Positions 1-3,000 of a stretch of DNA of 64,000 nt are shown in pieces. Position 1 is the stretch's first letter. The number at the start of each line of letters is the position of its first letter. The DNA is taken from positions 512,001 to 576,000 of the forward strand of contig CM000434.1 in the NCBI GenBank assembly GCA_000165345.1. Reading direction: 5' to 3'. Made by a program: the position numbers.

Positions 1-3000
1 TTATAAACATCTAGGAATATTTTTAATTGGAGTTTATTGCCCTGATACGAATAGAACTTATTTAAACCCTCATCAATATATAATTGGAGATAATTCAAAT
101 ATTTATTATGAGGGGTCAAATTACCTTGGAATTGTGTTATCTTCCAGTATTTCCCTTGTAAAGAAAGCAGAGTTATTGGAATCACCAAAAAATTACACAG
201 AAGAATTTATTAAAAAAGTGGGGAGGAGGAGCTGTTCTCCATCTAACGTATTTCTTAATAGAAGTAAAAAATTCAAGTCAAAAGAGTATATTGAAAACAA
301 AGATCAATTAAATATTTATGATTGTACAATCATATCTGAAATTCATAAGCATTGTGATTCGAATGATACCGATAAAAATATCATAAAAAATTTGATAAAT
401 ATTAATGAAACTGGGAAAAATATACAAATTACTCAGCATAATCGTGAATTTACAAATTTAATCAATTATTCAAGTTCTTACGATGATCAATGTTTATTTG
501 ACCAGGTAAAAAATATGGTTCTCCCCAATCACTTTGAAGAAACTGCATCTAATATGACGAATATAAATAGTAAATTTGATATCTGCAAAATCAATTCTAA
601 TACAGTTAGTTTTTCTCAATCAAATTTAAATTTTCTACCTGAAACAAATACCGGTATTCCAGTAGTTTCAAATTATTTAGAAGCAATTTCAAAAGTTTTT
701 ACAAATAGAGAATACCCAATTGTGCTGATTATCGGATGGTGCGAACAGATTGATATGCTGGTAAAATTAACCTTTTCACTTAAACCTTCAAATTTTATTG
801 TTTTATGTGAAAAAATTATAGATTCCAGTTTTATAAATGAAGAGTTTTTTGGAAGAATTGCCCAAATATCTGGTGTTGGGACATCAGAACATGATTTAAA
901 ACAAGCCGGAGTATTGGTTGCATCAAGAATAATTATTTTTGATTCAACAGGGAATCCTTCAAATATATATAAAGAAGAACTAATTAACGTTAGATATGGA
1001 AAACATGCCATTGGCACTTGGATAGTAGTATGTTATTTATTCTCCAAATACAAAAAAAAAGATAATTGTTTAGTAGGATCCCAAAAAATGCCACCATTAA
1101 TAATAGATATTAAAGAGACAGACATTGGGTTATTATTATTTCAGTACTCGGATGATTGGCCAACCAGGATCGATGGATCAACTTACTCTATTCCATATAA
1201 GAACGAACTAGATTTTTTTTATTCAAGACAATTTCTTAGTGGACAGTTTTTTGTGGATAATATTATTGACTCATTGATTCCTTTTTTAGTTCCAATATTA
1301 GATAACAATCCTATAAATAAATCATTTATTAATCAAATAATTTATGGAAATCCAACTAGTAAACCATTCGGAAATGTTAGGTATTATAACGAAAAGAACT
1401 GTAGTTTGCAAATGGAAGAGATTCCATTTGTATTTGTGAATTCTACATTTTATAACTTATTTTCAGTAAGTTCGTTTTCGTTTTATAATTATAAATTTAT
1501 TCTTGATTTAACAGCAACTTCTTAAACATGGCAGGCTAGCCATTGGAATTTATAGACCAATTAGAGTGGACGATCATCAATTTAATAAAAAACAAGATAT
1601 AAAAACTCAAAAATTTTCTCCAAGTTTAGGAGATTTAGAGTCAGTTATTAACGAGAATTCGGTAAAAGAATGCTTTAATTGCGAAACTCATTTAATAATA
1701 TCATGCCCACCACCAAAATTCAAAATAAATTTAGGAGATTGTGTTTATTTCTTATAGAGTATATATCTTAAATATATTTATTAAAATAATGACTTTTATT
1801 TGATTGATTTTTTTTTTTGGTAGATATTTCACCATTATTTGATTGGTGTGTGCACACCAAAGTTAAACTATTTGAAAATAAACAAATCATTATGTGGGGA
1901 TTTATAGAACAATTAAGAACAAAAGCAGGAGGATTTATTGACTTATCCAGTGGAATTATTTGTTGTGCAGCATTTGGAAGTTTATTACTGATATTTCGTA
2001 AGTACATTCCGCATCCATCTGAATTCTTTCCATTTGGTTGGTTTTTTTTAAAATTTGGTATTCATAAGCATGACAATTTTAATTTATTATTGGATATTCT
2101 CGAGGGAGTTGATATTCCTGAAACAGGAAAGTATTCAATAAGAATTAAATGCGGTAGAGAAACTGACGAATCATCTACAACTATTTGCTTGGAAGATGTA
2201 AACAAGTTTACTAATAACCTTACGAAATCATTTAAATGTTGTTGGAAAGAAAAGCGTATTATTCTTGTAAGACAAAGGGAGAACTATTTATTTATTGAAT
2301 TAATCAGTCATGGCACTTTTACCAGTTCTGTAATTGGAGAATGTAGAATTAGCATTATGGATATAATTGATGCAAAGTTTCCAAAAAAAGTAACTTATAA
2401 CATCCAAAAAGACAGGAAGGTTGTTGCGAAACTACTGTTATCTTTTTATAGAATTTCTGCAAACATAATAGTTGAGGATACAAATCCAGTATTATTTCAA
2501 GCAATGATTAATTTACAAACTGATGCAGATATTTCAGGCAATAAATCAATTTATGCAGATTTTGACAAAATGTCGGAAAAAGAACAATTAATATTCTTTT
2601 CTAAAGCATTACAAGGAAATCTATATTACTTAGAAAATGGTGACAAAGGTAAGTTATCACAATTCTTTTTAAACCTTTAACTTTTTTTTTTTAAGATAAA
2701 CTGAGAATGTTTTATTTCAGAGCAGTGGAAGTTACAATTAATAGGTAAGTTAATAAAAAAAATATAAAGCAATTATTAATATTAAACAGGTGGGAGTGGT
2801 GCTATTGGGCAACCGAAGGCGATTATTTAAAAGGAAGTAGTAAATTAGGAGGATATCCATTTCTTGCTATGAGTGTGGTCATTCCAGATAAAACGGATAG
2901 AGATCAAATATACATCAAATATCATGATTTATACGGGATTCATGACCTTTTCTTTAAAGCGATAGAAATTGATAGAGATGTCTGGTCAGAAGCAATATAT

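Follow-up and report, generated by a model that had tools for sequence, protein, structure and literature searches.

Which gene opens the 64,000-nucleotide (nt) stretch of Cryptosporidium parvum DNA at positions 512,001 to 576,000 of contig CM000434.1 (assembly GCA_000165345.1; hereafter the window), and where does its coding sequence end? An earlier note on this DNA, made from the sequence alone, took the first reading frame for the tail of a Slo/BK-type potassium channel with RCK domains and placed its stop at nt 1525. Our analysis indicates with high confidence that window nt 2-1465 joined to nt 1515-1757 encode the C-terminal 568 residues of a 1100-residue Slo-family K+ channel of C. parvum. 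The family assignment holds, whereas a BK/Slo1 identity is not demonstrable for a protein with no calcium bowl, no detectable S0 helix and Slo2.2 as its best match. Of the RCK domains, RCK2 lies in the window together with only the tail end of RCK1.

Identity of the channel gene and its RCK2 domain

Translation of the window, whose base composition is ~30% GC, gives a frame from nt 2 that is free of stops for 507 codons and closes at a TAA (nt 1523-1525). The start listed for it at nt 134 (134..1525) is a GTG, as the earlier note had remarked, and this bacterial-style open reading frame (ORF) was discarded as an artefact that arises when the ORF lister is applied to a eukaryotic gene. By tblastn, nt 2-1465 are residues 533-1020 of the C. 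parvum protein QOY41094.1 at 100% identity, so the gene continues upstream of the window, as had been supposed. This protein (also WRK32813.1; P0003, CPATCC_002739) has 1100 residues and bears the GenBank name "Potassium channel domain containing protein". Its residues past 1020 resume in a different frame from about nt 1515; the spliced tail of 568 residues is exactly QOY41094.1 533-1100, with both exons 100% identical. Against a C. hominis TU502 fragment the window product shows 96% identity, and against a Cryptosporidium protein from a Logan assembly, which has a Pfam BK_channel_a match, it shows 76%. Full-length models of the gene in C. hominis have 1162 and 1645 residues.

The upstream half of the channel was read from QOY41094.1, which is 100% identical to the window where the two overlap, and it contains the pore and voltage sensor that were expected there. 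Pfam recognizes Ion_trans_2 at residues 203-268 (E 9.6e-14, above the gathering score), Ion_trans at residues 89-264 (26 bits against a cutoff of 25) and BK_channel_a, the RCK1 that follows S6, at residues 439-543 (28 bits against a cutoff of 26.8). The selectivity filter reads TIGTVGYGDF at residue 240, with the signature TVGYGD, and S4 reads WLRFLRLFR, with three regularly spaced arginines (RxxRxxR); a full-length profile aligns 'flrflrlt' to S4 of the Kv paddle-chimera. Compared with PDB sequences as a single sequence, the full protein finds Slo2.2/KCNT1 best, then Kv and BK channels. A full-length profile of three sequences also ranks Slo2.2 first (6e-16), with Drosophila Slo and Aplysia BK at ~1e-13, and the Kv channels interleaved in this ranking match the transmembrane (TM) and pore region only. 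The alignment to Slo2.2 extends, weakly and collinearly, into the RCK1 C-lobe and RCK2 N-lobe as well, and preserves the order pore, RCK1, linker, RCK2. A crude hydropathy scan sees S2-S6 and the pore helix, and no hydrophobic segment before a weak S1, the longer C. hominis N-terminus included. The alignment of RCK1 to BK is too weak for residue-level calls, such as equivalents of D367/E535/R514 of the Ca2+ site or of the Mg2+ site.

Relatives of the tail are few. An exhaustive phmmer search of 1.84e9 representative proteins gives three matches: a close Cryptosporidium orthologue, a dinoflagellate transcript fragment (P0017; E 8.7e-5) and a protein of the gregarine Lankesteria metandrocarpae (P0018; E 2.3e-4). 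The dinoflagellate fragment, which aligns to the RCK2 N-lobe, has an above-threshold Slo-like_RCK match of its own (E 7e-14), and the gregarine protein displays the Pfam series Ion_trans / Ion_trans_2 / BK_channel_a / Slo-like_RCK / Slowpoke_C. A word-indexed homologue search recovers the close Cryptosporidium proteins and the dinoflagellate fragment only. With so few homologues no deep multiple sequence alignment (MSA) can be built, and the tail profiles comprise three to five sequences, among them the gregarine and dinoflagellate homologues.

These profiles, compared with the PDB, find RCK proteins of a narrow range: all matches with E < 0.01 are BK/Slo1, Drosophila Slo, Slo3, Slo2.2 or DMI1, and CASTOR comes next at 0.08. 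The best E-values are 1.8e-7, for the Slo3 gating ring 4HPF, and 3e-7, for Aplysia BK; matches to RCK2 of Slo3 and BK range from 1.8e-7 to 1.6e-5. In these matches the RCK2 N-lobe aligns with the N-lobes of DMI1, Slo3 and Slo2.2, and the C-lobe with the end of BK and Slo3 RCK2. The earlier note had likened FLSGQFFVDNIIDSL to the BK RCK2 motif that follows the calcium bowl, and profile hidden Markov model (HMM) alignments agree: the stretch (FLSGQFF..DSL) aligns to BK FACGTAF..DSL in Aplysia BK 911-1063 and likewise to 'FSTGTVFSGSFLDSLL' in Slo3 536-685. Exon 2 is the best-scoring segment against solved BK chains (BK 'LCIGLYR...'), and both the gregarine and the dinoflagellate homologue retain it. 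On these alignments we assign a predicted RCK2 to the tail, a stretch that domain databases leave blank.

The window holds one Rossmann core, which is the RCK2 N-lobe, together with the last RCK1 strands and the whole of RCK2 (Table 1). Two Rossmann folds had been proposed; only one is found (nt ~677-961), and the first hhhhGxC stretch is instead a strand of the RCK1 C-lobe. This strand, LGIFLIGVYC (nt 11-40), lies at the end of the BK_channel_a match, whose last 11 residues are the first 11 codons of the window, and opposite the Slo2.2 segment ..LNPG. The RCK1 end as a whole aligns collinearly and weakly to Slo2.2 509-603. An hhalign comparison of the RCK1 region with the RCK2 profile is not significant (E 0.15) and only hints that LGIFLIGVYCP might be the RCK1 paralogue of RCK2 LAIGIYRP. 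The linker between the two RCK domains consists of 15% Asn and 11% Ser, is without counterpart in the dinoflagellate homologue and is mostly gapped in the gregarine one. It flooded the word-indexed homology search with candidates of low complexity.

Calcium bowl and place within the Slo family

In BK, a run of Asp just upstream of FACGTAF in RCK2 forms the calcium bowl; the human sequence is DQDDDDDPD. No acidic bowl is present in the tail, where any 12-residue window holds at most four Asp or Glu and the longest run of these is two. The stretch of ~25 residues that leads up to FLSGQFF, at the position of the bowl, reads 'FQYSDDWPTRIDGSTYSIPYKNELDFF'. The gregarine and dinoflagellate relatives are likewise without an acidic run, and in the HMM alignment BK is matched only from 'TELY' onward, past the bowl.

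These observations bear on whether the protein is a true BK (Slo1/KCa1.1) orthologue, that is, a channel of large conductance, opened by Ca2+ bound at the RCK2 bowl and at the RCK1 site, with an additional N-terminal S0 helix (seven TM segments and an extracellular N-terminus). Such an orthologue would account for the BK-like register of S4 ('LRFLRL'), for a BK_channel_a match above threshold and for an RCK2 C-lobe whose best alignments are with BK chains, the motif right after the bowl among the aligned parts. It is at odds with the lack of an acidic cluster in the tail and its relatives, with a BK alignment that starts only past the bowl, with the lack of a hydrophobic segment N-terminal of S1 in the crude hydropathy test and with Slo2.2 as the best full-length PDB match; moreover, Prole and Marrion list a C. 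parvum homologue with six transmembrane domains (TMDs) as closest to KCa4 (PMC3283738). We regard BK orthology as improbable. The protein lacks a calcium bowl and an evident S0 and has its best full-length match in Slo2.2, yet it carries a charged S4 of the BK kind; it is therefore filed as a Slo-family channel that is neither canonical BK/Slo1 nor Slo2. The missing bowl also leaves the labels "calcium-activated" and "BK" unjustified. Stretches of the RCK2 N-lobe align to Slo2.2 at 0.9-2.6 bits, which is too weak to align Na+-site residues.

The RCK2 N-lobe matches the first RCK of DMI1 as well (E 3e-7). A channel of the CASTOR/POLLUX/DMI1 type, which has a non-GYG filter, an S4 without charges and two RCK domains of its own type, was considered and rejected on the TVGYGD filter, the charged S4 and a C-lobe that matches Slo1/Slo3 only.

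The full protein is a 6-TM channel of the voltage-sensor type, whose TVGYGD pore precedes two RCK domains in tandem. From Slo1, Slo2, Slo3 and MthK an outline of its function can be drawn. Four subunits would form the K+ pore, and the eight RCK domains of the tetramer would assemble into a cytoplasmic gating ring below it. On binding of a ligand, a conformational change in the ring would then tug at S6 by way of the S6-RCK1 linker, with voltage dependence contributed by the S4 arginines. We infer the tetramer and ring assembly, the K+ selectivity and the gating only by homology to these channels. Ca2+ bound in a bowl of the BK type is probably not what activates the channel; possible ligands are Na+, H+, Ca2+ at some other site, or something else. 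As a tentative proposal, Cryptosporidium, the gregarine and the dinoflagellate may share an alveolate-specific Slo subfamily, in which a charged S4 like that of BK would be joined to a bowl-less gating ring answering another ligand (Na+, H+, another Ca2+ site, or redox, metal or heme).

Directly before the last RCK2 strands the tail carries CFNCETHLIISC, a CxxCxxH(x5)C sequence at tail residues 541-552. It lies in a Cryptosporidium-specific insertion; the related Cryptosporidium contig described below has it unchanged, and the gregarine and dinoflagellate homologues lack it. A function as a metal, heme or redox site is possible, and the conserved CFNCETH(x5)C might contribute to sensing by the Cryptosporidium channel. 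The BK linker carries a CxxCH heme motif (PMC9657158). A parasite-specific regulatory site in RCK2, if true, would be a selective drug handle.

The 3' end, constraint and fold of the tail

The stop at nt 1525, given in the earlier note as the end of the gene, is an artefact of reading through a 49-nt intron, and exon 2 extends the coding sequence to nt 1757. The DNA reads TTT TCA before the intron and CAA CTT CTT AAA after it. Reading through the intron and on into exon 2 out of frame yields the final 19 codons of the open frame (VSSFSFYNYKFILDLTATS). A contig from a related Cryptosporidium (L001) has donor and acceptor at identical exon boundaries, and the intron body between them has diverged, with a length of 47 nt and non-triplet indels. 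Because a difference of 2 nt would be untolerable in coding DNA, the splice model is supported independently of annotation. The exon 2 protein is 78% identical between the two. The conserved Slo C-terminus, LAIGIYR...ISCPPPKFKINLGDCVYFL, is restored by the spliced product only, and is kept in the gregarine, the dinoflagellate, BK and Slo3. The related contig itself (Logan SRR18693150, 1-8543) encodes the channel orthologue at ~77% amino acid identity, and its prokaryote-style gene call ends at the intron read-through too.

Older C. hominis models depict the 3' end differently. The read-through peptide forms the end of the TU502 model XP_667643, as it would if the frame to nt 1525 were the true unspliced end, and OLQ17615.1 and PPA64871.1 join the channel to the downstream C2/PH-domain gene in a product of 1645 residues, a splice that the GT..AG pair at 1741/1823 formally permits. 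An unspliced end, however, leaves LAIGIYR...ISCPPPKFKINLGDCVYFL broken and does not explain why intron boundaries are conserved despite a 2-nt difference in length, while the splice required for the fusion would remove the conserved terminal strand 'CVYFL', and more recent annotation of C. parvum and C. hominis has two separate genes. Both alternatives are very unlikely, and the older read-through and fusion models are probably wrong.

Comparison of the tail with that of the related Cryptosporidium species by the Nei-Gojobori method (synonymous divergence dS about 0.8) gives an overall ratio of non-synonymous to synonymous substitution (dN/dS) of 0.15. The ratio is 0.10 in the RCK1 end, 0.21 in the linker, 0.13 in the RCK2 N-lobe and 0.07 in the RCK2 C-lobe. 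The first part of the RCK2 C-lobe is the most constrained, with 87% amino acid identity, and the linker is the least conserved, with 66%. The tail is thus constrained coding sequence under purifying selection, its folded parts most so, and the linker is under such selection also.

Structure models agree with the assignment to the Slo family in part. In the AlphaFold2 models only the Rossmann core (tail 220-315) is modelled confidently, with alternating strands and helices at a predicted local distance difference test score (pLDDT) of 60-86. A Foldseek search of the PDB with the whole-tail model returns BK, Slo2.2, Slo3 and MthK as all of its top 50 matches (best E 7.8e-9). With the model of RCK2 alone, the top nine matches are human Slo1, followed by MthK/GsuK/KTN, and generic Rossmann enzymes appear from rank 12. 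Locally the core superposes on the RCK of MthK/GsuK/KTN at 3.9-4.5 Å. Such results point to the family that the models resemble and are supportive rather than proof. The search against gating rings that the earlier note had proposed thus returns, by profiles and Foldseek, almost solely BK, Slo3, Slo2.2, Drosophila Slo, DMI1/CASTOR and MthK.

Several results weigh against this assignment. The 507-residue read-through product alone has one match in Pfam, a sub-threshold Slo-like_RCK (18.7 bits against a cutoff of 24), and by phmmer against PDB sequences it finds nothing but a chance match to KIF-binding protein (E = 1). The spliced tail alone matches Slo-like_RCK at 277-318 and Slowpoke_C at 479-513, the latter straddling the splice junction; the two stand in the right order at 18.4 bits each, and both are below their cutoffs of about 24. 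The profiles that do reach significance are made of very few sequences. AlphaFold2 mean pLDDT is low, 38.8 for the whole tail and 46.7 for RCK2 alone, and the models are poor because the MSA held only four to five sequences. Foldseek TM-scores of 0.15-0.23, with root-mean-square deviations around 20 Å, amount to no real global superposition. The tail is extremely divergent: in the sequence comparisons its RCK resemblance is real, and reaches significance through profiles alone.

The sub-threshold single-sequence searches, the poor models and the generic Rossmann enzymes from rank 12 are what one would see if the similarity were spurious and the tail belonged to the generic NAD-type Rossmann domains, or were an extension of low complexity that is peculiar to the lineage and has no part in a gating ring, but this is the least probable of the alternatives and is largely refuted: profile matches with E < 0.01 are to RCK proteins only, the strongest segment is a non-Rossmann C-lobe specific to the end of Slo RCK2, the domain order is collinear with Slo2.2, homologues with above-threshold Slo-like_RCK provide a transitive link, and purifying selection on the folded parts is strong.

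Neighbouring genes, prior knowledge and known channels

The channel gene is followed on the same strand by a gene for a protein with C2 and CERLI1-like PH domains (Table 1), which several GenBank entries call 'snoRNA', an obvious mis-naming. From nt 6510 to 63289 the window is ordinary gene-dense Cryptosporidium chromosome. The antisense ORF within the channel gene is most likely a chance ORF in AT-rich DNA.

Table 1. Features of the channel tail and of the remainder of the window (positions in nt of the window)
Feature	Position	Strand	Remarks
RCK1 end (C-lobe strands)	2-166	+	tail residues 1-55 = protein 533-587; includes 'LGIFLIGVYCPDTNRTYLNP'
RCK1-RCK2 linker	167-676	+	~170 aa; Asn/Ser/Ile/Lys-rich; predicted disordered; pLDDT 19-33
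RCK2 N-lobe	677-961	+	Rossmann-type beta-alpha-beta core, PIVLIIGWCEQ..NFIVLCEK..ISGVGTSEHDLKQAGVLVASRIIIFDS; also written PIVLIIGWCEQ...AGVLVASRIIIFDS
RCK2 middle	962-1201	+	long helix (328-353 in model), then non-acidic loop at BK calcium-bowl position: FQYSDDWPTRIDGSTYSIPYKNE
RCK2 C-lobe, first part	1202-1465	+	FLSGQFFVDNIIDSLIPFL motif at nt 1232-1288; end of exon 1
Intron	1466-1514	+	49 nt, 20% GC; GTAAGTTCG (GTAAGT)...TTTAACAG; canonical GTAAGT and AG ends
Exon 2	1515-1757	+	80 final RCK2 residues (QLLKHGRLAIGIYRP...CFNCETHLIISCPPPKFKINLGDCVYFL); stop TAG 1755-1757
Cys/His motif in insertion	1671-1706		CxxCxxH(x5)C
Antisense ORF	673-1017	-	114 aa, GTG; within channel gene
C2 / CERLI1-like PH-domain gene	1892-3409	+	P0006, 451 aa, ~100% identity; exon blocks 1892-2650, ~2719-3018, 3062-3409
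eIF5B-like GTPase	6510-9128		
Tudor-domain protein	17670-22145		
DEAD-box helicase	23868-26180		
APC1-like protein	31697-37753		
WD40 + bromodomain protein	39141-44105	-	
Sec1	50047-52155		
Glycogen phosphorylase	60584-63289	-	

The gene is already known, being named a K+ channel in the current C. parvum and C. hominis annotations, and KCa/RCK-type homologues of Cryptosporidium and other apicomplexans were catalogued in 2012 (PMC3283738); the claim of the earlier note that a Slo-like tail here would be notable is accordingly weak. Prole and Marrion found KCa homologues in all apicomplexans examined, those of C. parvum being XP_626777 and XP_001388321 (PMC3283738). The latter is described as having six TMDs, as closest to KCa4 and as without an RCK by CDD, and appears in their table for C. 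parvum only (PMC3283738). By its description this entry is a candidate for the window gene. That the 2012 table has no C. hominis counterpart agrees with the fragmented TU502 model. PfKch1 and PfKch2 are described in a 2022 review (PMC9799330), and a literature search found no newer paper on the Cryptosporidium channel gene of the window. What is added here is annotational: the RCK2 assignment, the 49-nt intron with the true C-terminus, and the missing calcium bowl. For ion-channel drug targeting in Cryptosporidium, these define the construct to express and raise the question of which ligand gates it.

Among solved channels, Slo2.2/KCNT1 (KCa4.1, Slack; PDB 5U70, 8HIR) is the best full-length relative, collinear in the TM region, the RCK1 C-lobe and the RCK2 N-lobe. 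Like the Cryptosporidium protein, it has six TM segments and tandem RCK domains that contain no calcium bowl; Slo2.2 has no S0, and none is evident in the Cryptosporidium protein. The two differ in S4, which is uncharged in Slo2 and RxxRxxR in Cryptosporidium, and in the C-terminal strands of RCK2, which in Cryptosporidium are closer to BK/Slo3; identity outside the pore is very low.

With BK/Slo1 (KCa1.1; Aplysia 5TJ6, human 6V22) and the Slo3 gating ring (4HPF) the channel shares the RCK2 C-lobe motif FxxGxxF..DSL and the terminal strands L.IG.YR...V(I)..PP...L...D.VY.L. The S4 arginine register, the BK_channel_a match and a disordered RCK1-RCK2 linker are further common features. By contrast, the Cryptosporidium channel has no poly-Asp bowl and no evident S0, its linker is far longer and of low complexity, and it alone carries the insertion CFNCETH..C before the last strands.

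The gregarine protein and the dinoflagellate fragment are the only distant relatives of the tail detectable among the representative proteins searched. Both keep the terminal motifs, and the gregarine protein has the same full architecture; at 21-25% identity to the tail, they differ from it in having neither the Asn-rich linker nor the CxxC insertion. The apicomplexan KCa-type channels (PfKch1 and PfKch2, and C. parvum XP_626777 and XP_001388321; PMC3283738) are, like the window gene, protozoan 6-TM K+ channels with Slo-like tails. The 2012 study found no RCK in XP_001388321, whereas the profiles used here detect a predicted RCK2 in the window gene.

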